DNA from: Gemmatimonadota bacterium
Lineage (GTDB): Bacteria; Gemmatimonadota; Gemmatimonadetes; Palauibacterales; KS3-K002
Direction: 5' to 3'
Length of the DNA stretch: 64,000 nt
Assembly (NCBI GenBank): GCA_039586795.1
Contig: JBDHJS010000016.1
Coordinates: forward strand, 81,617-145,616
Below, one piece after another: positions 43,545 through 60,013 of the stretch. The translations under genes were made by a program, and so were the position numbers. The notes under the pieces were generated by a model that was given only the letters and a program-made list of their open reading frames with translations, had not been told where the DNA came from and made no database searches. Position 1 is the first letter of the stretch; each line of letters starts with the position of its first letter.

Positions 43545-44824
43545 TGATTGGGCTCTTCTACAGGCCATTCGTTCTGGCCATCTCGATCCTAGTTGTCGGG
43601 TGCATGGTCGAAGGTGGGCGAACGCCTGACTCCGACGACATCCAGGTGCTCGTCGTCGCTACCGTACACGGCCAACACCGGCGCAACCCGAATTACACGT
43701 ACGAAGATGTCGTTAGGATCCTCGACACATACGACCCCGATGCCGTATGCGTGGAGATTCGCCCGGAAGACTTCCGCCGGCGACCGTACCTCAAGGAGAT
43801 GATGCTGGCCACGGCGTGGGCGGTGGTCAACGAACGCGAGGTTTGCGGTTTCGACTGGTACGACGGCACGGCGCGCCAAAACCGGGCCCGGCTCATGGAG
43901 CAACCGGAGTACGTAGAGAAAGAGCGGATGGTCGACAGCCTCATCGCGGCCAACCCGATCACCGGCCCGTTCAGAGAGCGGTACGGTGACTTCTGGCGCG
44001 GAGAGATGGACCTTCGCTTCTACAACGGTCCCGAGTACAACCGCTATATCGAGGAGGTCTATCGTATATCGCTCGCCGTCTTCGGTGACAGCCCAATCAA
44101 CTTGCACTACGAGTTTCGTAATCGTCGGATGATGGATCTGGCGTGGGATGTGATCAGCCGGCACGCCGGCGGTAAGGTGGCGCTGTTGACCGGCAGTGAA
44201 CACAAGCACTACTTCGATCGCGATCTCGAGGCCCGTGAGAACGTCAGGGTCGTCGATCTCGATGAGTTCCTACCGCTCGTTGACGACCCGTTGCACGCGG
44301 TGATCGCTGACTTCCTCCGGGAAGAAAACGACCTCGTCTATTACGAGAGCGGATTTCCCTCGGACACGAATCGCTATTATCAGTCCAAACTGGTGCCGCT
44401 CGTTCATGGCCCGAACATGGACTGGTATCCGGACACCATACCCGCCAGGAACATCGAGGTAGCCGGGAAGGTGCTGGAGCGTTGGCGCGTATCTCAGCCG
44501 CGATCTCATCGCATGACGTTCGACGAGGCATGGCTAGATTTTCTGACCGGGAATTGCGAATCGGCCGTCGAACGGGTAGCGGGTTTGGTCGAGGCGATCG
44601 AGAGCGGTCGCGTCGAGGATCCGTTCATCAGGGTCTACACGTATCGAAATCGCGGGCTGTGTCAGGACCTGCTAGGAGAACGACCGGCGGCGCTCGAGTC
44701 GTACGCTCGTGCCAGGGCGCTCGCCCAGGGGACGCGAACGGAAGGGAACATCGACCGTGCTCTTCAGAACTACGAAACCGTCCCCTACCAGCGCCGGCGT
44801 GCTGAAGAGTCGTCAGGCCGCTAG
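43541..44824 (+). CDS. Lipoprotein with TraB/Tiki-like domain and C-terminal TPR
   Basis: Lipobox VVGC; TVHGQH, VEIRP, RNRRM, GSEH; TPR-like tail. Confidence 0.6.
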   Translation: MMIGLFYRPFVLAISILVVGCMVEGGRTPDSDDIQVLVVATVHGQHRRNPNYTYEDVVRILDTYDPDAVCVEIRPEDFRRRPYLKEMMLATAWAVVNEREVCGFDWYDGTARQNRARLMEQPEYVEKERMVDSLIAANPITGPFRERYGDFWRGEMDLRFYNGPEYNRYIEEVYRISLAVFGDSPINLHYEFRNRRMMDLAWDVISRHAGGKVALLTGSEHKHYFDRDLEARENVRVVDLDEFLPLVDDPLHAVIADFLREENDLVYYESGFPSDTNRYYQSKLVPLVHGPNMDWYPDTIPARNIEVAGKVLERWRVSQPRSHRMTFDEAWLDFLTGNCESAVERVAGLVEAIESGRVEDPFIRVYTYRNRGLCQDLLGERPAALESYARARALAQGTRTEGNIDRALQNYETVPYQRRRAEESSGR

Positions 44825-44837
44825 ATGCAGAGGTACG

Positions 44838-46070
44838 TCACTGTAGCTTGAGGAGGCTGAAGAGCAATACCCGCTCCACGCCGAACTCGTCGAGCGACAC
44901 GCCGAGCACGAAATCGCCTCCCACCTGCACGATCCGGACGCCGCGAGGAATCTGCACGGCGCCCAACCACCTACCGTCGGCATCGAAGACCTGCCACGAC
45001 TGGGCCTGCCTGGCATACTCTCCCAGCCAGACTCGGCCGCTGGGGTCTATGAGGAGGCCGAAGGCGGCCGGCAGTGCCTCTGGCAACTCCATTCGGGACC
45101 AAATCCGTTCAACGGAGCTTCGCTCATCTGGCGTTGGATCATCGCCCATCCATTCCGTCTTCATCGCACCGATCAGGCTGTCCGTGACGGGCTTGGGGTC
45201 ATACGCGCCGCGGATGCGCCGTATCAGAGCGGCGTCGACGGAGTACACATCGACGCCCAATTCACCGCCATCCAGGAAGTAGATCAGGCGCCCATCGGAG
45301 GCCAGCTCGGGAAAGCGACCCAGCGGGTGGTTGTTGATGGAGAGGCCGCCGTTGGACTCGACGGTGTAGCGATCCATGCCGGGAAGACGCATGAGCGCTT
45401 CTGGCTCCGATCCGTCTGAGCGGTACAGCGTGACGCGAATTGTATCTCGCCACAACCGCCACGGCTCGGCAGTGGTCAACAGCTCCGTGCTGCGCGCGAT
45501 GATCCTTCCGTCGTCCAGTGCGGCTCGTGGTGACGGAAAGGCGCCGCCCTCGTTCCCAGCCAGGCGGCTCACGCGACCAAGGCGTCCCTCTTTGTCCAAT
45601 ACGGTGGCGCGCTGTTGTGATCGGTCGTAAACGAACAGCGAATCGCCGCGGTATTGCGCCAGCAGCCCGATATCTTGAAACTCGCCGGGGCCGCCGCCGC
45701 GACCGCCCACAGACGACAAGTGCATCCCTTGAGAGTCGTAGAACCGAATCTCCTTCGTACCCCCGTCTGCCACGACAACGCGCCCGTCCGGTAGTCGGAG
45801 CGCGCCGGCGATCTGGAAGAACAGGTACGCGTCATCTCCCTCAGCAACACCGATGGTCAGGTCGGGTTCGGATGCGAGGTGCAAACCTTCAGTGCTGTCC
45901 CACGCTGGCGCCGCGCTCTCCACGATGGTGACTCCTGCACTGTCGCGAGTCGCGACGACAGGTTCACCGTCCCGCTCGGCACTGCAGGCCAAGAGCGGCA
46001 CTGAAGTGGCGGCCAGCAGGTGGGCGACGGCGAGCCCACTCGGGCGCGATCTTCCAAAGCTTCGATTCAT
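44838..46070 (-). CDS. 6-bladed beta-propeller (NHL-like) lipoprotein
   Basis: Lipobox LLAC; RDSAGVTIVE, GGRGGGPGEF, VFDADGRWLG, DEFGVERV; ATGA overlap with the upstream gene. Confidence 0.82.
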   Translation of the reverse strand: MNRSFGRSRPSGLAVAHLLAATSVPLLACSAERDGEPVVATRDSAGVTIVESAAPAWDSTEGLHLASEPDLTIGVAEGDDAYLFFQIAGALRLPDGRVVVADGGTKEIRFYDSQGMHLSSVGGRGGGPGEFQDIGLLAQYRGDSLFVYDRSQQRATVLDKEGRLGRVSRLAGNEGGAFPSPRAALDDGRIIARSTELLTTAEPWRLWRDTIRVTLYRSDGSEPEALMRLPGMDRYTVESNGGLSINNHPLGRFPELASDGRLIYFLDGGELGVDVYSVDAALIRRIRGAYDPKPVTDSLIGAMKTEWMGDDPTPDERSSVERIWSRMELPEALPAAFGLLIDPSGRVWLGEYARQAQSWQVFDADGRWLGAVQIPRGVRIVQVGGDFVLGVSLDEFGVERVLLFSLLKLQ

Positions 46071-46609
46071 CGCACTCTTCTGAACGCGGAGGGTGGATTC
46101 TCCTGCCAGGCACCGTCGCTGAAGACCATGACCTGGTCGATGTACTCCTCCGGGTTGTCGCATCTTACCGTCCAGACCCAGTGATCGGCGCTCCCGTCAG
46201 GGCTGTAAGCGGACCCATTGATGACGACGTGCGAATCGGATGATTCAATCTCCTCACCTATTTGGAGGGAGGCGAAGGAATTGACCATCTGCACAAGTAT
46301 ATTTCCTGTGTGCGGGTGCTGGGAAATTATGCCATGCATGTCTTCCCAAAGCGCCCCGTCGACCCAGATCTTGACGTCGATGTATACTGACAGAGGCGAA
46401 GCTCCTTCCGAGTATCGGATCTCGACCCTCACTTCCTCTCCACTGTCCCTCGTCCTCTCGACTGCCCAGGTTCCACCCACGAGCTTGCTAAACACCCCCA
46501 GCGCGGCGCCCGCCTCCACCTCAGGTGATGCCGGGTCTTGTGCGCGTACTGGCTCCGCTGCAGATACGATCAGCAATGCGGCCGTAGCGAGAGTCTTAAT
46601 TTTGTTCAC
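46067..46609 (-). CDS. Hypothetical exported beta-rich protein
   Basis: GTG 46609 followed by a signal peptide (VRA-Q); LVGGTW motif. Confidence 0.6.
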   Translation of the reverse strand: MNKIKTLATAALLIVSAAEPVRAQDPASPEVEAGAALGVFSKLVGGTWAVERTRDSGEEVRVEIRYSEGASPLSVYIDVKIWVDGALWEDMHGIISQHPHTGNILVQMVNSFASLQIGEEIESSDSHVVINGSAYSPDGSADHWVWTVRCDNPEEYIDQVMVFSDGAWQENPPSAFRRVR

Positions 46610-46689
46610 CTTCTGTTTCCTTCTAGTTGGTATGGAGTACATGCGTCGTGCATGCCGCACCCTAGTGATCACGGCTCGACGTAGAGCAT

Positions 46690-49176
46690 TCACTCCGCCC
46701 GAAGCACCTCCATCGGCTCGATCCGTGTCGCTTGGTTTGCTGGTACGTAGGCGGCGACGGTGGTCACGCCAACCAGAACGGCGGCCGCGACGCCAAGACT
46801 CAGCGGGTCAAGAGGACTCACGTTGTACAACAGGCTCTCGAGCGCACGGGTCGCGAGCCAGGCGGCCAAGGCTCCGATGGCGATCCCAGCGCCCGCCAGC
46901 ATCAGGCCTTGCCGCACAACCCGTCTGATGACGCTGGCGGAATCCGCACCCAGTGCCATGCGGAGGGCCAACTCCCGTTGTTGATGCGTCACCCTGTTTG
47001 CCACCACTCCCCATACACCCGATGCCGCCAGGATCAAAGTCACCGCGGCAAACACTGCGAATAGCCTTCTGAGTAGTGCTGTGTCGGAGACAGATGCTGC
47101 TGCAATTTGCTCCAGCGTCCGAACGTTGGAGATCGGGATGTTCGCGTCCAGGTCATTTAGCGTCGCTCGGACCGCTTGCAGCGCCCCAAGAGGTTCACCG
47201 CTCGTGCGGACGACGGCCGTCGAACCGAACCCATCCTGCGTCATGCTCACATATGCGTCGGCGGTGATCCCCTGTTCGGGTTGGTCGTATAGCACATCAG
47301 CCACAACCCCAATCACCTGGGCCTGCTCACCGGCGAATGCACCACGGTTCAGGGCAACAGTTTGGCCAACCGCATCGGTCTCGGGAAACAGAATGCCGGC
47401 GGCTCTCTCGCTGATGATCAAAGCCGGCGGCGAGGAAGCACTGATCAACCTATCGAACACTCGGCCCTGTACCACATCGATGCCAAAGGTCTCGAAGTAC
47501 CCCTCGCGAACGTATTGGACGCCGATGAGGGGTGCGCCGGAGCTTGCATCGTACTCAGTAGATCCTGCGCTCGTAACACGGCTGAACATGCAGTGTCTTT
47601 CAAGAGGCGGCGTGCAGGTGACGGACGCCGTGACGACGCCCGGCACCAGCCGCAGCCGCTCGAGAAACACGGTCTGGAATTCGATCGGACTCTCACCCCA
47701 GCTGCTCCACCTCGAAAGGGCGTAATCGAAAATCAACACGTTCTGTGCTTGAATCCCGCGGTCCACCTCCTGTAGGTGGTGTAGGCTGCGGACCAGCAGA
47801 CTTGCGCCCGTCAGCAATAAGAATGCGAGAGCGATCTCGAGGATCACTATGGCACCGCTAAGATCGACCTTCGTCCGGCGACCCATGATCCGGTCTGTGG
47901 AGCTGCTCAGCACCTCAGCGATGTTGGTGTGCGTGCAACGGATAGCCGGCAACAGTCCAAATACGAGGCTCGTGACGAGCGAGAGCCCGACGGCGAAAGC
48001 CAGAACTCCCCCATCGATCCTGATCGCGTCCAGATCCATGGAACTGAGGTTCCAGCCGCCGGAGAGAAACTCGCTCGGCCATGTCGCGACAAGCAGCTCT
48101 ACTCCGTACCGCGCCACCCACAGCGCCACTACGCATCCGAGGGCCGATAACAGGACGCTCTCGCTGAGGAAGTTCCAAACGACACGCAACCGTCTACCGC
48201 CGATTGCCAATCTGATTGCAGCTTCTCGGCTCCGTTCCAGGGCCCGTGCTAGCAAGAAGGCGGCGAGATTGGCACAGGTGACGAGCAGCACGAGTGCCGC
48301 ACCTACTGTGAGAAGAAGCAGCGAAGTGCGTGTCTTGGGAGATACTCGGGCGTCCAGCAACCCGCGCGCACTTCCCCCGTGAATGGCATCGGGATCCGGG
48401 TCCGGAAATGCGGCCCGAACCGCGTTCGCGACCGCGGCCATTTGTGCCTGGGCGGCTTCGAGCGTGGCGCCGTTCCGAAGGCGGCCGACGACGCCGAACA
48501 AATGCGCCTGACTGTTGTTGAAGATTGCCATGTCCAGAAGTCGCTCGGCAGTCCGCGTGGGCACCCATAACCCGGCCGACCCGCTGAGTCCGGTGAACCC
48601 GGTCGGCGCGACGCCAACGACGGTTACCGGGCTGCCGTTGAGCGTCACGGTCCGACCGACAACAGAGGAATCAGCTCCGTAGTGATTGATCCAGATGGAA
48701 TGAGCGATCATGGCCACCAACGGCGCGTCTACCTCTTCATCGCTCGCCATGAAAGCTCGCCCCAGTGCGGCGCTGATCCCTAGCATACTGTGGTACTCGT
48801 GCGTGACTACTTCGCCCATCGACAGAACGGCGCCCTGCTCAGCCGCCAGGTTGAACGAGAAGGCCGCGTATGCCGAGATCGGATCCGCAAGTCGATTTGG
48901 GGTCTCGGATAGGATCAAGAACTCTGGATGAGTCCACAGGTAGGCGCGCTGAGGCCCCGGCCGGGATTGGGAAGAGACCGTCAGGTCCAACAGTACTAGC
49001 CTATCGGGATCTTGATAAGCCGGCGGCTCAAACAGGGCAGCTTTCACGGCCGTGAAGACGGCAACGTTCGCCCCGATTCCAACGGCCAGTACCGTTACTG
49101 CTGAAACGACGAACAGCGGCCGCTTCCGAAGGGTTCGGGCGGCGAATCTCAGATCGTTCCAGATGGTTTGTATCAT
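46690..49176 (-). CDS. Duplicated MacB/FtsX-type ABC permease (ADOP-like), divergent copy
   Basis: NDLRFAARTLRKRP, LLVTCANLAAFLLA, RELALRMALGA, PANQATRIEPMEVLRAE. Confidence 0.9.
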   Translation of the reverse strand: MIQTIWNDLRFAARTLRKRPLFVVSAVTVLAVGIGANVAVFTAVKAALFEPPAYQDPDRLVLLDLTVSSQSRPGPQRAYLWTHPEFLILSETPNRLADPISAYAAFSFNLAAEQGAVLSMGEVVTHEYHSMLGISAALGRAFMASDEEVDAPLVAMIAHSIWINHYGADSSVVGRTVTLNGSPVTVVGVAPTGFTGLSGSAGLWVPTRTAERLLDMAIFNNSQAHLFGVVGRLRNGATLEAAQAQMAAVANAVRAAFPDPDPDAIHGGSARGLLDARVSPKTRTSLLLLTVGAALVLLVTCANLAAFLLARALERSREAAIRLAIGGRRLRVVWNFLSESVLLSALGCVVALWVARYGVELLVATWPSEFLSGGWNLSSMDLDAIRIDGGVLAFAVGLSLVTSLVFGLLPAIRCTHTNIAEVLSSSTDRIMGRRTKVDLSGAIVILEIALAFLLLTGASLLVRSLHHLQEVDRGIQAQNVLIFDYALSRWSSWGESPIEFQTVFLERLRLVPGVVTASVTCTPPLERHCMFSRVTSAGSTEYDASSGAPLIGVQYVREGYFETFGIDVVQGRVFDRLISASSPPALIISERAAGILFPETDAVGQTVALNRGAFAGEQAQVIGVVADVLYDQPEQGITADAYVSMTQDGFGSTAVVRTSGEPLGALQAVRATLNDLDANIPISNVRTLEQIAAASVSDTALLRRLFAVFAAVTLILAASGVWGVVANRVTHQQRELALRMALGADSASVIRRVVRQGLMLAGAGIAIGALAAWLATRALESLLYNVSPLDPLSLGVAAAVLVGVTTVAAYVPANQATRIEPMEVLRAE

Positions 49177-49236
49177 CGTCCGGCGCTTACTAAGTGGTTG
49201 GTTTGTCGCTAGCGATCATGAAAGCACGCGTTTGGT

Positions 49237-50544
49237 CTATCCCAGCACGGTTAGGCTGCTGTCCGGATTGATCTGCCGATTCCGCGAGAAGAAGCCCACA
49301 TCGAAATCGTAGTCAGTGTAACGGCCATTCACGCGAACGGGGTCGCGATCGTGATCGTGCCCTAGTTCGCACGCCGTGATCAACTCCGCCATCATCAGAC
49401 CGGCCATCGGCGCGTTCTTGTACTGATTGCCGCTTGTACCGACGGCCATGTAGAAACCGTCGAGGTCTGACCGGTCATAGATCGGCATCCAGTCATCGCT
49501 AACGTCGTACAGGTCGGCGAAGCCCTTCGGTTGGCTGGGGATCCTGAGCCCGGGCATGCGTAAGGCGAGGCGGTAGACCTGCGATCTCCATTGTTCATCT
49601 GTCACTTGCGTATTGAAGTCATCGGGGTCGTCGATCCAGTCCTTGGCGTCGCACTCCGGGTCCTGGCTGCCGGTCATCAGCATCTCTCCCACTTCCGGTC
49701 GGGCCCACCCGCCGATGTCTTCGTCCGAGATGAAGGGGCTGGAGTCGGCCATCCCGCTGTTCTTCGGGCGCGCCAGGTAGTGGACTTCGTGGCGCAACGG
49801 CCGCGTGCTCAGCTTCATGGCATCGTCGACCCCAGCCATCCGATTGACGATGAACGAATGCGGGCCGGCGACGTTGACGACGATCGGCGCGGCGATCGTC
49901 TGACCATCCTTGAGGGTGACGCCGCTGACCCTGTCGTCGCGCTTGCTGATTTCGATGACCTCCGCGTTGAAGATGAACTCCGCACCGTGTGCCTCCGCCG
50001 CTCGCTGGAGGTTGTGCGCCGAAAGCTGCGGGTCGTTGATGTAGCCTGCCGTCGGGATGTAGATGGCGCCGGGAACCGTGCCGCCGGTCGTCTCTCCGAA
50101 CTGGTCATCGTCGGCACGTCGTGGAGGGTAGAACTCGCTCACATCGAGGAATGGAGACTTTGCCTTCAGCGTCTCCGCGTCCCACTCCTCGTAGTCGATT
50201 CCCAACTCGTCGTGGTGTCGAAGGTGTTTCTGGAAGTCGTTCGCCTGCGATTTGACCACGACCATGCCGGTCTCTACCAACCTGGCAAACCCTCGTTCGT
50301 CCTCCACTCCGATGTAATTGGGCCAGTCCTTCCAGTGAAGGAAGCTCTCGTAGGCAAGGGCCGTGCCTTCCAGGTAGGAGTAGTGAGTGCGGACGATAGC
50401 GCACGTGGCGCCGGTAGACCCGTATCCGGCTGCAGGGAGCTTGTCGACGCTCAGCGTGTGATAACCCTGCTTGGCCATTTCGAAGGCGGTGGCCGCTCCG
50501 ATCGCTCCTGCGCCGATGATGACGGCGTCGTACTTGGAGGTCAA
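49237..50544 (-). CDS. FAD-dependent oxidoreductase (DAO/sarcosine oxidase beta-like)
   Basis: IIGAGAIG, VVNVAGP, YDVSDDWMPIYD, GTSGNQYK; TTG start with GGAG RBS. Confidence 0.88.
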   Translation of the reverse strand: MTSKYDAVIIGAGAIGAATAFEMAKQGYHTLSVDKLPAAGYGSTGATCAIVRTHYSYLEGTALAYESFLHWKDWPNYIGVEDERGFARLVETGMVVVKSQANDFQKHLRHHDELGIDYEEWDAETLKAKSPFLDVSEFYPPRRADDDQFGETTGGTVPGAIYIPTAGYINDPQLSAHNLQRAAEAHGAEFIFNAEVIEISKRDDRVSGVTLKDGQTIAAPIVVNVAGPHSFIVNRMAGVDDAMKLSTRPLRHEVHYLARPKNSGMADSSPFISDEDIGGWARPEVGEMLMTGSQDPECDAKDWIDDPDDFNTQVTDEQWRSQVYRLALRMPGLRIPSQPKGFADLYDVSDDWMPIYDRSDLDGFYMAVGTSGNQYKNAPMAGLMMAELITACELGHDHDRDPVRVNGRYTDYDFDVGFFSRNRQINPDSSLTVLG

Positions 50545-50729
50545 GGCAGGTCTCCATCCATACTATACAAGGTTTTCGACGCAATATTGCATGCATGTGC
50601 ATAAAAATATACACTATGTGCCTTGAGATCATAGGGTACAGCTGAAGCAACCTTTTCTTTGTTGTTGCCGTCTCAGGGGCGGTGAGAGGTAACGAGTTGA
50701 CCCCCTCTTGTGCCTAAGGAGAACGCCCG

Positions 50730-51884
50730 ATGGCTAGAATCATGACGTTCCTTGCCACTTTCCTGTTCCTCAACGCATGCGACGTCGCTGACCGCAGTAG
50801 CATGCGGGAATTCGACCGTTTGCGAGGCGAGATCGATCTGATGATCGGTGAAGTGGACGGCCCGGACGAGTTCGTATTCGGACGGATCAGCGGGCTGGCC
50901 CAGGACGCCGCCGGACGGGTCTTCGTCGTGGCTCAGCAGGCGGACGAGATCCGTGTCTACGACAAGGAAGGCGGCTACCTCTTCCGGTTCGGCCGAAAGG
51001 GAGGGGGACCGGGCGAACTGGACGGACCATGCTGCCTGGCGTTCGCTCCCGACGGGAAATTGTGGGTACGGGACAACGGTAACGCACGGTATAACGGCTA
51101 CTCGGTGGCCAGCAACGCTCCGAACTTTGAGTCGTCCGTGCGCATGCGGCAGGCCGCCGCCAACATGGAGGCGACACTCACCTTCGACGAAGAAGGGTTG
51201 CTGGTCGACATCGGGCCGCGACCGGATCCGCAGTCGGGCCAGATGAACACCGTTCGTATTCATGTCGACGCCCAGGGTTCTGAGGATCGTGTCGATGTCA
51301 TAGCCAATCCACCGCAAGATCGCCTCGGCCTCCATCAGGTCGAGAGCGACGGTTCGATCTACTATCTCTACCAGCCGTATGGAGCTCGTCATCTGGTCGC
51401 TCACGCGCCGGGCGGGGACTGGGCGGACGCCGTCAGCTCATCATATCGCATCGTCTGGCGCTCGCCGGAGGGTCGGGAAACGATCATCGAGCGGGCAGAG
51501 GCTTTGGGGCCAGAGTTGAGTCCGGCGGAGCGGGAACGGGGCGAGGATCAAATCGCTTCATACCAGCAGTATCTCGCGTTGAATCGTAATGAGATTCCTT
51601 TCGACATTCCGGATCGCAAGCCCCCGATCCGCGATATGTTCTTCGATCAAGACGGCCGTCTCTGGGTCGAGCTGAGCGTTCAGGAGGGCGCCAACCGCCA
51701 GGCGGATGTCTACCTCCGTGACGGCACTCTCGAAGCTCACTACCGCTGGCCGGCCAACGTCAGGCTGCGACTTCCCGGCTGGATCGGAGACGACGTCGCT
51801 TTGGGCGTCGCCCGGGACGATCTGGACGTGGAGCGGGTTGTCCGGCTCCGCTTCGTCCGGGACTTGGTCAGCGAGCCCGACTGA
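50730..51884 (+). CDS. 6-bladed beta-propeller (NHL-like) lipoprotein
   Basis: Lipobox LNAC; GRKGGGPGEL, DQDGRLWV, DDLDVERVVR; AAGGAG RBS. Confidence 0.82.
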   Translation: MARIMTFLATFLFLNACDVADRSSMREFDRLRGEIDLMIGEVDGPDEFVFGRISGLAQDAAGRVFVVAQQADEIRVYDKEGGYLFRFGRKGGGPGELDGPCCLAFAPDGKLWVRDNGNARYNGYSVASNAPNFESSVRMRQAAANMEATLTFDEEGLLVDIGPRPDPQSGQMNTVRIHVDAQGSEDRVDVIANPPQDRLGLHQVESDGSIYYLYQPYGARHLVAHAPGGDWADAVSSSYRIVWRSPEGRETIIERAEALGPELSPAERERGEDQIASYQQYLALNRNEIPFDIPDRKPPIRDMFFDQDGRLWVELSVQEGANRQADVYLRDGTLEAHYRWPANVRLRLPGWIGDDVALGVARDDLDVERVVRLRFVRDLVSEPD

Positions 51885-51993
51885 CGGGCGCGTGTCCGAG
51901 GGGCGAGGGTAGGGCCGCCACACGGCCACACAAGTAATACAAAGGAAAAGTGAGATTATTTTATTGTATTACATGGTAAATCAGCCTTAATCC

Positions 51994-52023
51994 TTGACAA
52001 AGCGGTACAATAATCCCTAATAT
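51994..52023 (+). promoter_or_regulatory. Sigma70-type promoter ahead of structured RNA copy 1
   Basis: TTGACA (51994-51999)-18 nt-TAATAT in an AT-rich island. Confidence 0.65.
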
Positions 52024-52029
52024 ACCTAT

Positions 52030-52264
52030 GGTTCATAGCCTCAGGGTCGTGGATTGGGAACAGCTGCGCTGGGGCAAACGGTTTTGCCGGGTCCGAAAGA
52101 GCGGACGACGCGTCCTAACGGTGCCTCCTAAGAGGGGTCGAACGGTGAGAAGCCCCCGCCCGGCGCAACTTGGGAGGGAGCAGTCCTGGCTTGCTACGAA
52201 CGGAAATCGAGAATCCGACGCGACTGAGAACGCAAGCAGGCATGAACCGGGGCTGTTCTCTCCC
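52030..52264 (+). ncRNA. Putative structured RNA or riboswitch-like leader, copy 1 (family not recognised)
   Basis: Core 52086-52164: GCCGGG-TCCGAAAGAG...AGAGGGGTCGAACGGTGAGAAGCCCCCG-CCCGGC; 18-bp duplex 52172-52189/52247-52264; homologous to 58755-58992; the 5' end is estimated. Confidence 0.65.
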
Positions 52265-52874
52265 GACCTCTTTCCTGGACCGAGCTCCCTCGACTCTTCC
52301 TTTCCTTGCGCTGATTTCGCTATTGGCCGTCGCTTCCTGTGACGACGCATCGGGGCCCGCTCTCGTCGTCGATGCGGATCACCCGCTCGAACCATGGGTT
52401 GTCAGCCAGGACTTTGGCGCTTGGAACGACTTCTTCAGTGGGTACCACCTCGCCGAAGACGCCGAGGCCGAGCCCGGCGACCCGGTGTTCGCGATGGCCG
52501 ACGGCGTGGTCAAGGAGATCTACATCACCCAGGTGGAGCCAGGCTACGGCGCCGTGATGCTGATCGAGCACCGTTTCGAGAATCAGCAGCTGGTTTCGCT
52601 ATACGGTCACCTCAGCCAGAGCCGCAACTTTCCCGTGCGCGCCGGCGACGCCGTGTCGAAGGGTCAGGTCGTCGGTTACATCGCCGACGATGATGAGGAC
52701 GGTGGCCCATGGGGGCCGCACCTGCATTTCGGCATCCGGCGTGGCGCCTACTCGACGGGTTCGGTCTGTGGCGCCTGGCTCTATGTGGGCTATACGCGGG
52801 AATGCGCCGAGATGAGCCACGAGGAGTACATGGATATGTGGCTGGATCCTACCGACTTCATCTCTGACCACTGA
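52242..52874 (+). CDS. M23 family metallopeptidase lipoprotein
   Basis: HLAED (HxxxD), PVFAMADG, SLYGHL, GPHLHF; lipobox VASC; alternative TTG start at 52191. Confidence 0.85.
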   Translation: MNRGCSLPTSFLDRAPSTLPFLALISLLAVASCDDASGPALVVDADHPLEPWVVSQDFGAWNDFFSGYHLAEDAEAEPGDPVFAMADGVVKEIYITQVEPGYGAVMLIEHRFENQQLVSLYGHLSQSRNFPVRAGDAVSKGQVVGYIADDDEDGGPWGPHLHFGIRRGAYSTGSVCGAWLYVGYTRECAEMSHEEYMDMWLDPTDFISDH

Positions 52875-52975
52875 CACACCGGCAACCGCTTTTCCGTTTT
52901 AGGTGTCTAAAGGCAGTGAGCTAAGCGATACCGCGACCAGAAGGGTTCACCGTGCCAGCCGAGGAGCGTTTGGGA

Positions 52976-54355
52976 ATGATGCGGTTCCTCCTCTTTGTCA
53001 GCATGATCGTCGTGTCAGTGAGTCCGGTGGTCCGGTGTGCCAGACCCGAGGCGGAGCGTTCCATCACGGACAGCGCGACGGTCAGCTGGGAAGTGAGGAT
53101 CACAGAGCCCGCCAGCGGCCTGGTCGAGGTTCGCGGACGGATCCCCGGCGAAGCGATCGACGGCTCCTCCCTCATACTCAGATTCCTCGACCTGCGTCGT
53201 TTCCCAGAAGGCTTGCATTCGCTGGAAGCGCGGTCGGTTGGCCAGGCGCTCACCGTCGAAACGGGTGGACCGTCGGAGGAGCACGTTCGCCGAGTCGCTA
53301 CCGACGGCACCTCTGAGGTCGTTGAAATCGAGTACACGATCGACCCTACCTATTATCCGCCCGGCAGTCGGGTCGAGAATGTCGCCGATGCTCGAAGTCG
53401 CGTTGGTGGGGAGCTAGCCGTGCTTAGGTCCACCAGCCTGTTTCCTGCGCTGAACATCGATCCGCACCCGGCGCACGTGACGTTCGTGCTTCCGGAGGAT
53501 TGGGTTGCCGTAGCTCCGTGGAGAAAGGCGTCGGACGGGCTTGCGGTCGATCCGGAGGATGGTACCAGCGTCGAGTATATCGGCGTTGGACCTCTCGAGG
53601 TTCGGGAACTCAGGATCGAGGATACCACGTTCCGTGTCGCGACAGTTTCGGAGCAGGCCGTGTTGAATTTGGAAAGCGTGGCCGCCGCGATTCAGTATCA
53701 CGTGGATCTGCTCGGCGCCCCGCCCACGCGGTGCTCTGGCGGTCGGGCGGTGATCATCGTGACCTCGCGGTTCATGAGAGGCGGCGCGGCAGGAAGGTGC
53801 TCCATCGTGCAGTCGCCGTCGCCCGAGGTGCTTTCACACGAGGTCTTTCACTGGTGGACGCACGCCGCGTTGGTGCGCCCCGAAGCGCGCTGGTTCTCTG
53901 AAGGTTTCACCAACTACTACGGAATAAAGGCGGCTCGGGAGAGTGGCCTGATGAGCGAGGAACAGGCGGCGCTTTGCCTGGCTGACCTGTGGGGAGAGAT
54001 GCTGTTTTTGGAGGCGGAGCGGCGTCAAAGCCTCTCGGCCGCGTCGGTAGACTACGATAGTGACGGCCGTGCGAGACGACTGGTCTACAGCAAGGGAACG
54101 TTGTTTGCGCTCGACCTCGATCGAAACCTCCAGGAGCGCAGCCGCAGCCTGGACGAAGCGATGGGTGCAATCCTGTCCGAGGCGCGAAGGAGTCTGACGA
54201 ACGTCGATTTGCTCGAGTTGTTCAACCGCGTCTATGGGAACGGCGTCGATGCGGAATTCGATGCTTACGTAGAGAACAACGAGGCGCTTCCTGCCCTCGG
54301 TCTCGGGCCAGCGACGGGTCGCAGCGGCTGCGCCCGTTACCTGCCGGACAACTAG
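52976..54355 (+). CDS. Exported zinc metallopeptidase (M61/M1 gluzincin-like)
   Basis: LSHEVFHWW (HExxH), WFSEGFTNYY, LVYSKG; signal peptide; GAGGAG RBS. Confidence 0.8.
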   Translation: MMRFLLFVSMIVVSVSPVVRCARPEAERSITDSATVSWEVRITEPASGLVEVRGRIPGEAIDGSSLILRFLDLRRFPEGLHSLEARSVGQALTVETGGPSEEHVRRVATDGTSEVVEIEYTIDPTYYPPGSRVENVADARSRVGGELAVLRSTSLFPALNIDPHPAHVTFVLPEDWVAVAPWRKASDGLAVDPEDGTSVEYIGVGPLEVRELRIEDTTFRVATVSEQAVLNLESVAAAIQYHVDLLGAPPTRCSGGRAVIIVTSRFMRGGAAGRCSIVQSPSPEVLSHEVFHWWTHAALVRPEARWFSEGFTNYYGIKAARESGLMSEEQAALCLADLWGEMLFLEAERRQSLSAASVDYDSDGRARRLVYSKGTLFALDLDRNLQERSRSLDEAMGAILSEARRSLTNVDLLELFNRVYGNGVDAEFDAYVENNEALPALGLGPATGRSGCARYLPDN

Positions 54356-54380
54356 TTGTCATGACTGAGCGGAGAGTGAG

Positions 54381-56792
54381 ATGCTATACGCGTGGTGGAT
54401 AGAAGCTCAAACAGCGATGCGTTCACTACTACGGCGTAAAGGGTTCACGGCGGTGACGGTGATTACTCTGGCCGTGGGGATCGGCGCCACGACCACTCTG
54501 TTCAGCGTGGTCTACGGTGCCCTGTTGAAGTCACTGCCTTACGCCGAGCCGGACCGCCTGATGCGGATTGGAGAGCGGGGCGAGAGCGCGGCGCCGGACG
54601 CCATATGGTCCATTTCCGTGGCCAACTTCCTTGACCTCGAGGCCGGCACCGATGCCTTCGAGAATCTGGCGGCGTACTCGTTCCACGGCTTCAACCTCTC
54701 GGGCCGGGGCATCCCCGAACGATATCGAGGACTGCTGGTAACCCATGACTTCTTTGGAGTGCTCGGTATGCCGCCCGAGCTTGGCCGCGACTTCCTGCCG
54801 GAGGATGATCGGCCCGGTGCAGAACCGGTGGTCATCCTCGGCCGCGCCTTGTGGCGGCAGGCGTTCGGAGGCGACCCGTCGGTTATCGGGGAGACGGTGA
54901 CGCTGGATGGCATTCAGCACCGCATCATCGGGGTGGCCAACCGTGAGTTCGGTTTCGTGGCCGACCCGCAGCTGTGGGTCCCGTTCGCCTGGAGTGAGGA
55001 GCAACGTGCCGGCCGGCGCGGCCGCTGGATCGAAGCGATTGGCCGGCTCGCTCCGGGGGCGACGGCCCAGGCGGGCCTTGCCGAGCTGAGAGTACTGTAC
55101 GCCGGTCTCGCCGATGCCTATCCGCGGGTCAATGGCAACCGCAGCGTCGGGGGACGTACGTTGCGAGACTGGCTCGTCGGGCGAAGCGCTCCACGGCGTC
55201 TGCTCCTCTTCGGCGGCGCAGCGGTTCTCGTGCTTCTCATCGCCTGCGCGAATGTGGCGAATCTGGGGCTGGCGCGGGCGGAGACGCGAAACCAGGAGTT
55301 GGCGGTGCGCGCTGCCCTCGGTGCCGGCCCCTACCGGCTGGCCAGGTTACTCATGTCGGAGAGCGTTATTCTTGCCCTGCTGGGCGGAGCGCTTGGGACC
55401 GTGCTTGCCCTTGTGGGAGTGGATCTACTGCTGGCAAGAGTCGGGCAATGGATCCCGCGCGCGCTGCAGATTTCGGTGAGCGGTATGGCGCTGGCTTTCG
55501 CGCTATCGCTGTCGGTGCTAACCGGGGTGTTGGTAGGAATCGTACCCACGCTTCGCCTGAAGTTCGAGAATCTTCAAGGGCACCTGGGCCAGGGACGAAG
55601 CGGGTTGGCGTCACTGAGAACGTCGGCACGTCGCGTTCTCGTTGTGACAGAGATCGCTCTCGCGTTGGTGCTGGTTGCCGGCGCCGGATTGATGATTCGG
55701 TCCGTGTGGCGATTGAGTCGGGTGGACTTGGGCGTGGACACGAAGGGTCTCGTTACTTTTGTCCTGGCGCTCCCTGATTCGAAGTACCCTGATCCGCCGG
55801 CGGCGCTCGCGTATTACGATGCCGCGCTGTCAGAGATCGCTGCCATTCCGTCGGTGAGCGCAGTAGGGGCGCAGAATCGCAAGCTTCTGTACGGTGGCGG
55901 CAATGCCAGGATAACCGTTCAGGACGAACCGCACCTCGGCTTTGAAGGACTGGTTGAAACGCGGGAGACGACGCCGGGACTCTTCACAGCGCTCGGTATG
56001 CGGGTCATCATGGGCCGGTCGTTCACCGAACAGGATCGACGCAACGGTGGTGTCGTGATCGTTAACCGGGCTTTCGTCCGCGCGGTGTTCGGCAGTTCCC
56101 AACCGCTGGGGCGTTCCTTCGCCCCCAGCAATAGTGAGGGCCTCTTCACCATCGTCGGCGTCGTCAATGACGTTCGCGACTTCGGGCCCGACGAAGCCGC
56201 TCCACCCATCGCGTACTACCCTTACGGTGCCGGTCCGTGGGGTACCTGGCCGTATCTTGTCGTGGCCGCACGTGTCGAGGGCAATCCGCTCCGCGCGGTG
56301 CCCACCATCCGTGAACGTCTTGCTGTCATCGATCCGGAAGTTCCGCTTGCCGAGATTGCCACGATGGAGGATATCGCGACCGAGACCTTGGGTGCGCAGC
56401 GTCGAACGGCACTCTTTCTGTTTGGCTTGTTTGCCGTCGTTGCCCTCGCACTTGGTGCCGTCGGCATCTACAGTGTGATGGCGTACACGGTCGAACAACG
56501 CACGCGTGAGATGGGCATCCGCCGAGCCCTCGGGGCTTCGGCGGACAGCGTCATCCGATTGGTGCTCAGGCAGAGCCTGTGGCTGGCCGGCATCGGAGTG
56601 GGCATCGGGCTGTTAGGCGCGCTGGCTCTCGGCCGCGCCCTGTCTAGCCTGTTGTTCGATGTAAGCCCGTTCGATCCGATCACTTTGGCCTCCGTCGCAG
56701 CGATTCTGGTGGGGGTTGCACTCGCTGCTTGTTACTTACCGGCGCGACGGGCGGCGTCGGTGAGCGCCATGGAAGCGCTCCGGCACGACTGA
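54381..56792 (+). CDS. Duplicated MacB/FtsX-type ABC permease (ADOP-like)
   Basis: RSLLRRKGF..VTVITLAVGIGA, LLIACANVANL, QRTREMGIR.ALGA, PARRAA. Confidence 0.92.
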   Translation: MLYAWWIEAQTAMRSLLRRKGFTAVTVITLAVGIGATTTLFSVVYGALLKSLPYAEPDRLMRIGERGESAAPDAIWSISVANFLDLEAGTDAFENLAAYSFHGFNLSGRGIPERYRGLLVTHDFFGVLGMPPELGRDFLPEDDRPGAEPVVILGRALWRQAFGGDPSVIGETVTLDGIQHRIIGVANREFGFVADPQLWVPFAWSEEQRAGRRGRWIEAIGRLAPGATAQAGLAELRVLYAGLADAYPRVNGNRSVGGRTLRDWLVGRSAPRRLLLFGGAAVLVLLIACANVANLGLARAETRNQELAVRAALGAGPYRLARLLMSESVILALLGGALGTVLALVGVDLLLARVGQWIPRALQISVSGMALAFALSLSVLTGVLVGIVPTLRLKFENLQGHLGQGRSGLASLRTSARRVLVVTEIALALVLVAGAGLMIRSVWRLSRVDLGVDTKGLVTFVLALPDSKYPDPPAALAYYDAALSEIAAIPSVSAVGAQNRKLLYGGGNARITVQDEPHLGFEGLVETRETTPGLFTALGMRVIMGRSFTEQDRRNGGVVIVNRAFVRAVFGSSQPLGRSFAPSNSEGLFTIVGVVNDVRDFGPDEAAPPIAYYPYGAGPWGTWPYLVVAARVEGNPLRAVPTIRERLAVIDPEVPLAEIATMEDIATETLGAQRRTALFLFGLFAVVALALGAVGIYSVMAYTVEQRTREMGIRRALGASADSVIRLVLRQSLWLAGIGVGIGLLGALALGRALSSLLFDVSPFDPITLASVAAILVGVALAACYLPARRAASVSAMEALRHD

Positions 56793-56827
56793 CGCGAGTA
56801 TCGACCTGTTTGTCATCAGGAGAGGTG

Positions 56828-58048
56828 ATGCGGATAAAGCTGACACCAAGAATCGCCGGCGCCGCCGTGCTGGCCCTCGGTTCCATGTTTGCGGGTTACT
56901 CGTGCGGTGCGGAGCAGGGAAGCGACTGGGGTGGCACCGTGGACACGTTGGCTAATGGCGCACTGGCCGTGCGCAACCCGAATGTCGGTCTCTGGAGTGA
57001 TGAGACGGCCTGGGTTGTCGTTGACAGCCTTCGCATTGGCGCGCTCGACGATGAGCACGCTTCGTTCAGCCGGATTTCCGACATCGCCGTCGATCTTGAC
57101 GGACGGATCTACGTCCATGAATTGGGCTCCACCTTCGTGAAGGTCTTCGATCCACAGGGCCGATACGTTCGCACGATTGGAGAGCGGGGCGGCGGCCCGG
57201 GCGAGATCCTCAGTGGCGCTGGCATAGCTGTCGACGATGAAGGCCGTCTGTGGTTGGCTGATGCGGGGAACGTTCGTTACAGCCTCTACGACCGGGAAGG
57301 CGGATTCCTGAGTAGCTCGCGTTGGACTGATGCGCGCTACCCCATTCCTCGCCCGCTATCGTTCGATGCCGCCGGAAATCTGATTTGCTGGGCGGCGGAG
57401 CGCGTGAGCCGAACCGATGTCGTGGACGTGGTGGTTCAGTTGGACTCTGCGTTTCAGATCGCCCAGGCGTATGCGCTTGCCGAGTTCAAACCGGAGCTGT
57501 TCGAGTTTCGCGACTCGAACAACCGATTGCGGATGGTCGATGCGGTGCCGTTCTCGCCGCGGCAGCATTGGGCCGTCGATGCGGTAGGAGATCTGTGGGT
57601 CGGCATCAGCGACCAGTACCGCATCGTGCGGCAATCGCCCCGCGGTGACACGCTCCTCGTCCTTTCCCGCGACGCTGATCCCAGTCCGGTGACGGACGCG
57701 GACAGGGATGCGGCCCTTTCTGAGTTCAGCTGGTTCACCGATGGCGGTGGCAAAATCGATGAGACCCGCATCCCGAGCACAAAGCCGCATTTTCAGAGCA
57801 TCCATCTCGATGACCGGTCGCATGTCTGGGTCAGAAGATTCGTCGACCCGGGTGCAGCGTACTCGCATTTCGACGTCTTCGACCCTGAAGGTCGATACTT
57901 GGGAGAAATCAGGATTCCCTATGTCTTTGAGGGGCGGCCGAAACCGTTGATGAAGAACGGCCATGTGTACGGCGTTGTACTTGACGAGCTCAACGTGCCT
58001 TACGTCGTCCGCGTGGCGTTCGGTGCGCTGCGAAATGCTGAGGGATGA
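56828..58048 (+). CDS. 6-bladed beta-propeller (NHL-like) lipoprotein
   Basis: Signal plus GYSC; VDTLANG, GERGGGPGE, DVFDPEGRYLG, DELNVPYVVR; AGGAGAGG RBS before ATG 56828. Confidence 0.82.
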   Translation: MRIKLTPRIAGAAVLALGSMFAGYSCGAEQGSDWGGTVDTLANGALAVRNPNVGLWSDETAWVVVDSLRIGALDDEHASFSRISDIAVDLDGRIYVHELGSTFVKVFDPQGRYVRTIGERGGGPGEILSGAGIAVDDEGRLWLADAGNVRYSLYDREGGFLSSSRWTDARYPIPRPLSFDAAGNLICWAAERVSRTDVVDVVVQLDSAFQIAQAYALAEFKPELFEFRDSNNRLRMVDAVPFSPRQHWAVDAVGDLWVGISDQYRIVRQSPRGDTLLVLSRDADPSPVTDADRDAALSEFSWFTDGGGKIDETRIPSTKPHFQSIHLDDRSHVWVRRFVDPGAAYSHFDVFDPEGRYLGEIRIPYVFEGRPKPLMKNGHVYGVVLDELNVPYVVRVAFGALRNAEG

Positions 58049-58070
58049 ACACGGAGAGGCGCCACTCTAG

Positions 58071-58601
58071 CTAACCGGGTCTCGTTCCGAAGAACAGCTG
58101 ATGGCCGTCGGGGTCTACGACTTCGAACATCCGCATCCACGGTCGGTCGATCAGCGGCCCAGCCTCGATGCCCCGCCCCGTCACCATGCCGTAATGCGCG
58201 TCGATATCCTCTACCAGGAAGTAGTGCCGGTTGCCGACGACTACGAGCTCGTCGCCGCTCTGGGTGAGATGGAGCGCGAACTCGAAACCGCCCGCCGAAA
58301 ACAAGGCCCAGATCGGACGCTCAGCCCTAGTCCACTCGGGCACCTCACGCTCCTCATCATAGTCGAAGTAATGTCTGAACTCGAACCCCAATCGCCCGTA
58401 GAACTCGACGCTTCGTCTCACGTCCGTGACGTAGAAAACCGGAAGCACCTCTCCGGTGAATCCTCCGTGCTGGTTCGCCGCGGCTGGCGTCCGTCGATTC
58501 GGCGAGATCCCTTCGGCCGTCACTCCCGTGACCAGGGCCTCTGAGACGATGACCGCCGCCGCAACCAGGGCGCAGACGGGCAGCAGGGATGAGCTTCTCA
58601 T
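58071..58601 (-). CDS. VOC/glyoxalase family protein with an N-terminal signal or TM segment
   Basis: PVFYVTDVRRSVEFYGRLGF, FLVEDIDAHY, PWMRMFEVVDPDGH; GGAGG RBS. Confidence 0.8.
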   Translation of the reverse strand: MRSSSLLPVCALVAAAVIVSEALVTGVTAEGISPNRRTPAAANQHGGFTGEVLPVFYVTDVRRSVEFYGRLGFEFRHYFDYDEEREVPEWTRAERPIWALFSAGGFEFALHLTQSGDELVVVGNRHYFLVEDIDAHYGMVTGRGIEAGPLIDRPWMRMFEVVDPDGHQLFFGTRPG

Positions 58602-58719
58602 GGCGGCACCTCCAGGGGAAGAAGAGCGCTCTGAGCGGATGCGGTGCCCATCGTTTGGTCATATCAAAGCCCAGATGGCCTTATAGTATAAGAAATGTAC
58701 GCAAAACGGCAACAAAACC

Positions 58720-58748
58720 TTGACATATGCAGCAAAGTGGGGGATATT
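58720..58748 (+). promoter_or_regulatory. Sigma70-type promoter ahead of structured RNA copy 2
   Basis: TTGACA (58720-58725)-17 nt-GATATT with an A-rich upstream region. Confidence 0.6.
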
Positions 58749-58754
58749 GCTTAT

Positions 58755-58992
58755 CGTTCGCAAGTAGCATTCGCCCCGTGGATGTTAGAACGGTGGACCC
58801 CGTCGGGACCGTAAGAGAAGCGCCCCCATTGCAACCCAGAGGGGTCGAGTCGGTGAAAGGCCCCCGCCCGACGGAATTTTTCTGAGTGAGGGAATGGTTC
58901 TGTCTATTCTTAAATAGAGGCGGGTTGGACGTTTTCAGGAACCGTTGAGTCAGTTCAATGACGCCCGTCACAGGGCCATTTCCTCCTCAGAA
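58755..58992 (+). ncRNA. Putative structured RNA or riboswitch-like leader, copy 2 (family not recognised)
   Basis: Core 58800-58874: CCGTCGGG-ACCGTAAGAG...AGAGGGGTCGAGTCGGTGAAAGGCCCCCG-CCCGACGG; 22-bp duplex 58880-58902/58971-58992; the 5' end is estimated. Confidence 0.65.
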
Positions 58993-59043
58993 TGGCCACC
59001 CGGCGAAGCGTCCCACTAAAAAGGCCGGGAGACTGGGAGATAG

Positions 59044-59175
59044 ATGAAACTCAATAAGATGAAGGCAGACGAGCGAGTGCCGGAGTGGCGTGATGTTATA
59101 GCAGATCCTTTCTTCTGGACTACGTTGTTTCTGATCGTTGTTCTCATGGTGAACATAGTCGCGACCAGAGGTTGA
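59044..59175 (+). CDS. Unannotated 43-aa single-TM small protein
   Basis: Manual translation MKLNKMKADERVPEWRDVIADPFFWTTLFLIVVLMVNIVATRG*; GGGAGA RBS just upstream; below the ORF-track size cut-off. Confidence 0.55.
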   Translation: MKLNKMKADERVPEWRDVIADPFFWTTLFLIVVLMVNIVATRG

Positions 59176-59206
59176 AGTTTGCGCCATCGTCGCGTTTAAT
59201 GAGAGC

Positions 59207-60013
59207 ATGAGCCAACGACAGCCAGACCCCTCGAGGAGTCTCGTATCGGTCCCCGCGGTATCGCGGCGGAACTTCCTGAAGACCGGTGTTGGAGCGGTGG
59301 CGGCACTTGCCCTTTCCGCGTGTGAAGATGCCACGGAGGCAGGTGGTGGGGAGTCGCGGCTCTCGGCGCGGCCGGGGGACCCGACTATCGCACCGGACAT
59401 CGGCGAAAGCCCGCTGGGCTTTGAGGCGGGTCGCGATGGACTCCTCTACGTGCCCAGCACTTACTCCGAGGACACGCCAGCGCCGCTGTTCGTTGCGTTA
59501 CACGGTGCCGGCGGCTCGGGAAGCGATTGGGCGAGCTATTATGGCCTGTGCGAGCTTCGCGGGATGGTTCTCCTGGCGCCGGATTCTCGATCGACGACGT
59601 GGGACCTGGTCGAGTTCGGCTTCGGACCCGACGTGGTCTTCCTGAATTGGGCGCTCAGTCACACGTTCAGTCGCTGCCGGATCGACCCCGAGCATATCGG
59701 ACTGGGCGGATTCTCGGACGGAGCCTCGTACGCCCTCTCGCTCGGACTCTCGAACGGAGATTTGTTCAGTCACCTGGTCAGCTTTTCGCCTGGTTTTGTC
59801 AGCGCGGCCAATCCGTTGGTGGGTGACCCGAGGATCTTCATCTCTCACGGGACGAACGACACAATCCTGCCTGTCGCCGGAACTCGTGATGGGATCGTTC
59901 CTGATCTGCGTGCCTCGGGTTATCGGGTGAGGTACGAAGAGTTCACTGGCGGCCACGTGCTTCTCCCTACGGTCTCGGACCTGGCGTTCAACTGGTTTCT
60001 GAGAACGACCTGA
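59207..60013 (+). CDS. Tat-exported phospholipase/carboxylesterase (alpha/beta hydrolase) lipoprotein
   Basis: SRRNFLK Tat motif plus LSAC; ALHGAGG, GFSDG (GxSxG), HGTNDTILP, GGH. Confidence 0.85.
   Translation: MSQRQPDPSRSLVSVPAVSRRNFLKTGVGAVAALALSACEDATEAGGGESRLSARPGDPTIAPDIGESPLGFEAGRDGLLYVPSTYSEDTPAPLFVALHGAGGSGSDWASYYGLCELRGMVLLAPDSRSTTWDLVEFGFGPDVVFLNWALSHTFSRCRIDPEHIGLGGFSDGASYALSLGLSNGDLFSHLVSFSPGFVSAANPLVGDPRIFISHGTNDTILPVAGTRDGIVPDLRASGYRVRYEEFTGGHVLLPTVSDLAFNWFLRTT

Follow-up and report, generated by a model that had tools for sequence, protein, structure and literature searches.

A conserved pseudoknotted RNA, apparently confined to one family of uncultured Gemmatimonadota, and its proposed control by a neighboring LytTR two-component system

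A stretch of 64,000 nucleotides from a Gemmatimonadota bacterium (assembly GCA_039586795.1, contig JBDHJS010000016.1, positions 81,617 to 145,616; hereafter the window) carries two divergent copies of an element of about 235 nt, which a preliminary description, made from the sequence alone, had proposed to be a structured RNA. This locus raises the question of what kind of RNA it is, and whether it acts on the genes behind it or on its own. Both elements are present in the window sequence where they had been placed, and judged from sequence comparison, homologues in 18 other genomes and at 13 metagenome loci exclude a chance origin. We have hardly any doubt that the element is a real conserved structured RNA. 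It is apparently undescribed and confined to one family of uncultured bacteria within the order KS3-K002, which was renamed Palauibacterales according to PMC10469786. The most likely reading, if by no means a secure one, is a standalone RNA that is switched on by a neighboring LytTR system and acts in trans.

To define the range of the element, pattern searches were performed, which gave nine further cores in related genomes, and a first covariance model was built from 11 cores. With this model the element was detected in 19 of the 31 genomes of the window's Gemmatimonadota family, and a second covariance model returned the identical 19 genomes. It was found in none of 114 genomes of the sister family and, under stricter filters with 28 candidates scored for each genome, in none of 147 further genomes of the class that lie outside the family. 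In the genome collection six pattern matches were obtained, five of them in Gemmatimonadota, Gemmatimonadales or Candidatus Kutchimonas records. Metagenomes contributed 13 loci with the element, two of which duplicate genome loci, and viral contigs contributed none. The 33 loci (20 from genomes, 13 from metagenomes) comprise 30 distinct ones after removal of a locus that is cut off (L051) and of the two duplicates (L062 and L065); here L numbers denote individual loci, G000 is the window's own genome and other G numbers are relatives. Candidate members outside the family were rejected: a loose pattern matched 12 of 401 outside genomes compared with 16 for the reversed control, 13 places in outside genomes, when scored with the model, all fell short of an E-value of 0.01 (the best gave 22 bits and E 0.024), and the matches in G048 and in Nocardioidaceae lacked the 5' strand.

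Searches of Rfam 15 gave no match in the window at the gathering threshold and, at E-values up to 10, three weak unrelated matches, none of them on either copy. For 29 homologous loci searched at E-values up to 1 no relevant match was obtained (9 loci: one weak miRNA match; 20 loci: none). The suggestion that the RNA may be undescribed has thus withstood the Rfam check. No description was found in the literature, although the element may still be listed in the 1274-motif supplement of PMC11109978, in other motif supplements or in subscription papers; likewise, no structured regulatory RNA was found described for the window's lineage.

One copy per genome is the rule (18 of the 19 genomes), G000 being the only genome with two, which contradicts the earlier expectation of a multi-copy element. 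No third core was found in the 4.68-Mb G000 genome. An 18-bit match on its contig C8 had been considered as a third, decayed core and was withdrawn because the stretch matches a promoter-like motif of orthologous loci, which have no core there. The different sites, the two copies in G000 and the loss from the family's usual locus in both G000 and G002 might be explained by a small mobile element or dispersed DNA repeat. However, the prevailing single copies, wobble pairs that are strand-specific (see below) and the absence from viral contigs speak against it, and no transposase, integrase or reverse transcriptase was recognized among the examined neighbors (Pfam on 23 proteins, the rest by eye). 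Neither the many copies nor the cognate mobilizing enzyme of a miniature inverted-repeat transposable element or dispersed repeat was found, and we consider this explanation very improbable. Still less credible is a divergent housekeeping RNA, that is a signal recognition particle (SRP) RNA or 6S RNA missed by Rfam in this lineage. Mostly one copy occurs per genome, and no match to either SRP model or to 6S was found in the 97.8% complete G000 genome, where RNase P RNA and tmRNA were found elsewhere. On the other hand, the surroundings of dnaX and zapA are frequent places of SRP and 6S RNAs, and in G000 the dnaX start lies ~290 nt from a contig end (L096, C96 1-290) while a long hairpin stands behind zapA (L095, C23 84330-84640). 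Moreover, the fold described here is not a rod, the element was not found in the sister family or in three single-contig genomes of its own family, and the near-universal range and Rfam match of SRP and 6S RNAs were not found.

The whole RNA measures ~200-240 nt and is composed of a short 5' hairpin, a pseudoknotted core and a long 3' hairpin (domain 2). Across the 30 distinct loci the core is a compact three-way junction with a pseudoknot, in which the unpaired residues are near-invariant. Its closing stem P1 is paired in 99% of the alignment cells, with two-sided change at three of seven pairs. The pseudoknot extends to 5 bp and is 92% paired, one of its pairs being A-U in 20, G-U in 4 and G-C in 3 sequences, and the loop that follows reads UGNRA in 29 of 30, which we take to be the T-loop consensus. 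A covariation score of 0.177 was obtained, compared with 0.146 ± 0.010 in shuffles, of which 2 of 500 reached it, and slid-alignment controls gave at most 0.078. The covarying closing stem and the pseudoknot, both predicted from the window copies, are therefore borne out, with modest support. Fourteen G-U cells in P1 would be mismatches if the opposite strand were read, which fixes the RNA strand. Since the core lengths fall in all three frames, the element is noncoding; a conserved small peptide in the core was also considered and rejected, as an ATG is found in some members only and the frames differ. Parts of the core consensus derived from the window had to be given up: GGGGC occurs in 25 of the 30 loci, whereas the AAGAG that follows the 5' CCG, like GGGGTCGA, is a local feature outside the family consensus. 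In neither window copy is the inner GGGGT/GCCCC hairpin the pairing of lowest energy.

Because the MAFFT and the model-fitted alignment both misplace the central G-run in some rows, its pairings were counted on anchored blocks of the 30 loci. The central GGGGY pairs with the 3' GCYCC in 150 of 150 cells and with the upstream GCYCY in 146 of 150. With two C-rich partners for one G-run, one C-rich strand is always spare. Forcing either pairing resulted in a median difference of 0.0 kcal/mol, each being the better one in 15 of 30 loci (nested folds only).

On the same strand, a LytTR response-regulator gene lies upstream of the RNA at 14 of the 20 genome loci and at 9 of the 13 from metagenomes; at the genome loci a histidine kinase gene precedes the regulator wherever the contig reaches. 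This link holds for two groups of regulators, ~70% and ~47% identical to the query. An HlyD-type efflux gene ends head-on within ~300 nt at 12 of the 20 genome loci and 6 of the 13 metagenome loci. No same-strand protein gene follows the RNA at 12 of 20 genome loci, and such a gene stands directly behind it at five. In addition, a repeat box was found 62-78 nt before P1 at 21 of 31 loci as compared with 3 of 1261 control windows. Three imperfect TTC repeats follow one another here with a period of 21 (autocorrelation 0.42 at lag 21, 0.21-0.35 at other lags), the box being the last of them, and by its position and period it is a putative LytTR operator. A typical locus hence begins with the kinase and regulator genes, which are followed by the repeat box and the RNA, with no protein gene after it. 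A genome-wide search with the box pattern matched in 31 of 31 genomes, mostly in coding sequence, and was too loose to be used; a weight matrix detected no strong LytTR-type box in G000 (best 15.1). Box-like repeats (autocorrelation 0.45, lag 20) were seen on G000 contig C4 at 53330-53400, between another LytTR gene, which they directly follow, and a protein gene.

This gene context bears on two readings in which the RNA acts on its own transcript. The core could be a ligand-sensing aptamer, either a new riboswitch class or a sensor on its own transcript, with the two G-run pairings as on and off states. The compact pseudoknotted junction with its near-invariant unpaired residues and UGNRA loop and the two folds of equal predicted energy would suit an aptamer, as would the 3' hairpin that pairs the ribosome-binding region of an M23 peptidase gene in G000 copy 1 and in G002, and the nitroreductase gene behind the RNA in G025, G028 and L064. 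However, most genome loci abut a convergent gene and hold nothing protein-coding to control, the downstream genes that do exist share no common pathway, no terminator-like site was found after either window copy, and no switch pairing was established between the core and domain 2. The aptamer-like fold is present, the consistent 5' leader position of riboswitches is not, and we regard an aptamer as unlikely. Alternatively, the RNA could be a cis-acting leader whose convergent context is secondary, the loci being relics that remained when the regulated gene or RNA was lost. The loci with a same-strand gene directly behind, a degenerate domain 2 in L047 and L066 and a deletion remnant seen by eye at the G025 efflux locus are in line with this, but the gene-less context is the commonest one and occurs in several genera with core and promoter box intact, and the near-complete pairing of P1 is not expected of relics. 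We consider this reading improbable.

Taken together, these results suggest a family-restricted noncoding RNA gene as the output of a LytTR two-component system. The LytTR regulator would bind the three repeats and turn the RNA on; less firmly, the RNA may act in trans, as most loci have no downstream protein gene. The pseudoknot and the UGNRA loop could provide a compact protein- or RNA-binding body, and the core might flip between two folds of similar energy or offer its spare C-rich strand to a G-rich partner RNA. The use of this strand, as seed or as second fold, is the weakest step of the proposal. As for the two roles originally envisaged, the standalone noncoding RNA is supported by the context, and a cis-regulatory RNA or riboswitch does not hold as a general reading, given the many loci without a same-strand gene behind. 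The LytTR link and the competing G-run pairing lay beyond what the preliminary description could see.

Several observations weigh against a standalone RNA under LytTR control. The covariation is called modest because kinship alone can lift alignments of related sequences such as these above shuffles. Neither G-run pairing shows two-sided change, and near-equal fold energies are partly expected for G/C runs. At G019, G011, L066 and L060 (the last incomplete) the box is kept and no regulator was found nearby. The element was not found in 12 of the 31 family genomes, including the three single-contig ones (87-93% complete). The window copies lack the LytTR box altogether (scores -14 to -24), and the copies in G000, G002, G025 and G028 stand before protein genes, a position that a cis role fits. 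Finally, no transcript was seen: contigs from three low-share RNA runs (5-10% of the words) cover neither core, which by itself speaks neither for nor against transcription; one contig covers 58896-59062, from a run that may be DNA.

The long duplexes after the two window cores fold as had been described, and in nearly all loci domain 2 forms a long hairpin whose 5' arm is rich in purines, the arm sequence being conserved. Its loop motif was found in 15 of 30 loci compared with 8% in shuffles, and the window copies fail the strict pattern. A long-range pairing of this loop with the 5' G-run was considered and showed no covariation by eye. By contrast, the promoter and the CGTGGA hairpin, expected from the window to belong to the element, are not family traits: a TTGAC promoter was found at 3 of 33 loci and CGTGGA in the 70 nt before the core at 4 of 33. 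Closure of the 5' hairpin by GAAC holds for copy 2 and fails for copy 1, where the minimum-energy hairpin lacks it.

A second element of 90 nt was observed on G000 contig C8 (L069:1274-1363, minus strand), with paralogues such as L041:1664-1756 (plus strand) and no Rfam match. A stem of 10 bp closes it, its strands meet in a multi-way junction and a CCCUCC stays unpaired. The identity is 93-98% in 21 other family genomes, and some match exists in 25 of 30. The element usually stands behind a thioesterase-like gene, with two conserved promoter-like motifs upstream, which are presumably ECF-like (extracytoplasmic function), and a hairpin downstream. Diverged copies (76-84%) stand behind the main RNA at 11 distinct loci. 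Short matches to its 3' end, possibly relics and possibly chance, occur at 51914-51923 of the window, upstream of copy 1, and on contig C55 near 89500, just behind a LytTR gene. At L129 in G025, just past the stop of the efflux gene, an apparent deletion junction connects the beginning of domain 2 with the 90-nt element's end (by eye); G025 still has the RNA in another copy, which follows a different LytTR gene.

The succession of the two elements at these loci would suit another role for the core, namely processing: as a self-cleaving ribozyme or an RNase III substrate it would bring about the maturation of a downstream RNA, for instance the 90-nt element. The long duplex of domain 2 with its conserved arm sequence could serve such processing, and the core resembles small ribozymes in size and compactness. 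Yet no Rfam ribozyme was matched at E-values up to 1 in the homologous loci or up to 10 in the window, so that no known catalytic core was recovered; core and domain 2 also occur at loci that lack the 90-nt element, and the most conserved 90-nt copy sits elsewhere, with its own promoter-like motifs and no core. We judge a processing role decidedly unlikely.

Set against the usual unit of kinase, regulator, box and standalone RNA, the window's lineage is the odd case. The features of its two copies are summarized in Table 1.

Table 1. Features of the two RNA copies in the window and of the genes behind them
Feature	Position	Strand	Details
Copy 1 promoter, sigma70-type	51994..52023	+	-35 TTGACA, 18-nt spacer, -10 TAATAT; match 10/12
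Copy 1 5' hairpin with CGTGGA	52030..52061	+	From folding
Copy 1 core	52086..52164	+	P1 closing stem 52086-91/52159-64; pseudoknot CCG 52093-95 with CGG 52143-45
Copy 1 core, inner parts		+	Central G-run 52134-39; T-loop-like UGAGA 52146-50; 3' C-run 52152-56
Copy 1 domain 2, long hairpin	52170..52266	+	From folding
M23 peptidase gene, 210 aa	52242..52874	+	Pfam Peptidase_M23, E 1.9e-18; start inside copy 1 domain 2
Copy 2 promoter, sigma70-type	58720..58748	+	TTGACA, 17 nt, GATATT; match 10/12
Copy 2 5' hairpin with CGTGGA	58755..58793	+	From folding
Copy 2 core	58800..58874	+	P1 58800-07/58867-74; pseudoknot ACCG 58808-11 with CGGT 58851-54
Copy 2 core, inner parts		+	G-run 58841-46; T-loop-like UGAAA; 3' C-run 58860-64
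Copy 2 domain 2, long hairpin	58880..58992	+	From folding
43-aa ORF, unannotated	59044..59175	+	One hydrophobic stretch; first gene behind copy 2
TAT-signal carboxylesterase-like gene	59207..60013	+	Abhydrolase_2, TAT_signal; second gene behind copy 2

A promoter match of its own was confirmed for each copy: a scan of 51800-59300 gave five sigma70-type matches compared with 1.6 ± 1.2 in shuffles, and those of the two copies are the best. The A+T content is 69% in 51930-52030, around the copy 1 promoter, and the -10 position predicts a transcript start near 52030. The orthologous copy in G002 is preceded by a promoter laid out like that of copy 1. In the predicted fold of copy 1 the 3' arm of domain 2 pairs with the ribosome-binding region of the M23 gene and with early codons of that gene, the AUG lying in a bulge; the unpaired probability is at most 0.13 at 10 of 11 positions of 52231-41 and 0.94-1.0 at 52242-46. 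The N-terminus of the M23 protein is lipoprotein-like (by eye), and the G002 orthologue likewise has 210 aa and starts at the same position within the 3' arm of domain 2 of the G002 RNA. Copy 1 may thus also damp M23 translation in cis, as its modeled fold would allow; no coupling between the paired ribosome-binding region and the core was established. Behind copy 2, the 43-aa ORF occurs in G002 as well (L035:8634-8765), ahead of the esterase gene, with 75% DNA identity over 119 nt and open in both genomes; there, the ORF and the esterase gene have no RNA in front.

The two copies share only 42 nt at 83% identity (blastn E 6e-4). Compared with its own shuffles, copy 2 taken alone has the better fold (z -4.0), an advantage that copy 1 lacks (z -1.2), so the case for the RNA rests on the homologues. 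Neither copy is genetically linked to kinase or LytTR regulator genes. At the family's usual efflux locus kinase, regulator and RNA are all missing from G000, and G002 keeps the regulator without the RNA; the TTGAC promoter and the CGTGGA hairpin are common to the window copies and G002. The RNA thus appears to have been kept in this lineage at a new site under a new sigma70-type promoter, so that in the proposed scheme it would be gone from the usual site and expressed elsewhere, in G000 twice. In a tree of the 30 rows copy 1 grouped with G002 (89/81) and copy 2 fell on a long branch without resolved placement, so the tree does not settle the order of the duplication and the other events. The region 43541-58601 is a run of envelope genes that are unrelated to each other and point in both directions (two MacB/FtsX permeases, beta-propeller proteins, M23 and M61 peptidases and a glyoxalase-like gene), and in place of the window block 52.9-59.0 kb a single GldB-like gene stands in G002.

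In the window this RNA stands under another promoter and overlaps the start of a gene, and it would thereby offer a natural example of a small RNA gene on its way to becoming a leader. A further reading, in which the core is a new two-state RNA class (ligand sensor or ribozyme), standalone under two-component control and later redeployed by promoter swap as a leader, seems doubtful to us; if true, a free-standing switch RNA and a cis-acting derivative would coexist in one family. The range of one family narrows the weight of the finding. The family supplies an alignment of 30 sequences, a pseudoknot that can be tested, a core that may have two states and a prediction of the upstream regulator.

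How does this RNA compare with known systems? In size, in its junction with a pseudoknot and in its UGNRA-type loop it resembles riboswitch aptamers, pseudoknot and T-loop architectures being known from the ZTP, THF, c-di-AMP, cobalamin and FMN aptamers. It differs from them in having no Rfam match, usually no 5' leader position and no common downstream pathway. Small ribozymes (twister, twister-sister, pistol, hatchet and HDV-like) belong to the same compact pseudoknotted size class, and twister-sister has a similar loop; in contrast, the present RNA matches none of them in Rfam, its P1 closes the whole core and its strand order differs from those folds.

The repeat box finds a parallel in the LytTR proteins RcoM1 and CoxC, which, according to PMC11347149, bind triplets of 8-bp repeats spaced 12-13 bp; three imperfect direct repeats starting with TTC, about two helical turns apart and near the promoter, are common to those operators and the box. 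Behind the TTC the consensus differs here and adds a GTTC element, and the window copies have no box.

The closest likeness is to regulatory RNAs that are the output of a two-component system with an AgrA/LytTR-type regulator, the wiring proposed here. VirR belongs to the LytTR proteins, the fasX gene directly follows fasA, and C-rich loops are used by RNAIII. According to PMC3673130, AgrA drives RNAIII, FasA drives FasX and VirRS acts through VR-RNA. The RNA of the window differs from these three in its phylum, in the absence of a sequence or structure match in Rfam, in its compact pseudoknotted core and in having no conserved peptide. It is best read as a two-component effector RNA with a new fold and not as a member of the RNAIII, FasX or VR-RNA families. 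If this wiring holds, LytTR systems with an RNA output, known from Gram-positive pathogens, would also operate in an uncultured phylum unrelated to theirs, and the RNA there would have a fold that is far more compact.

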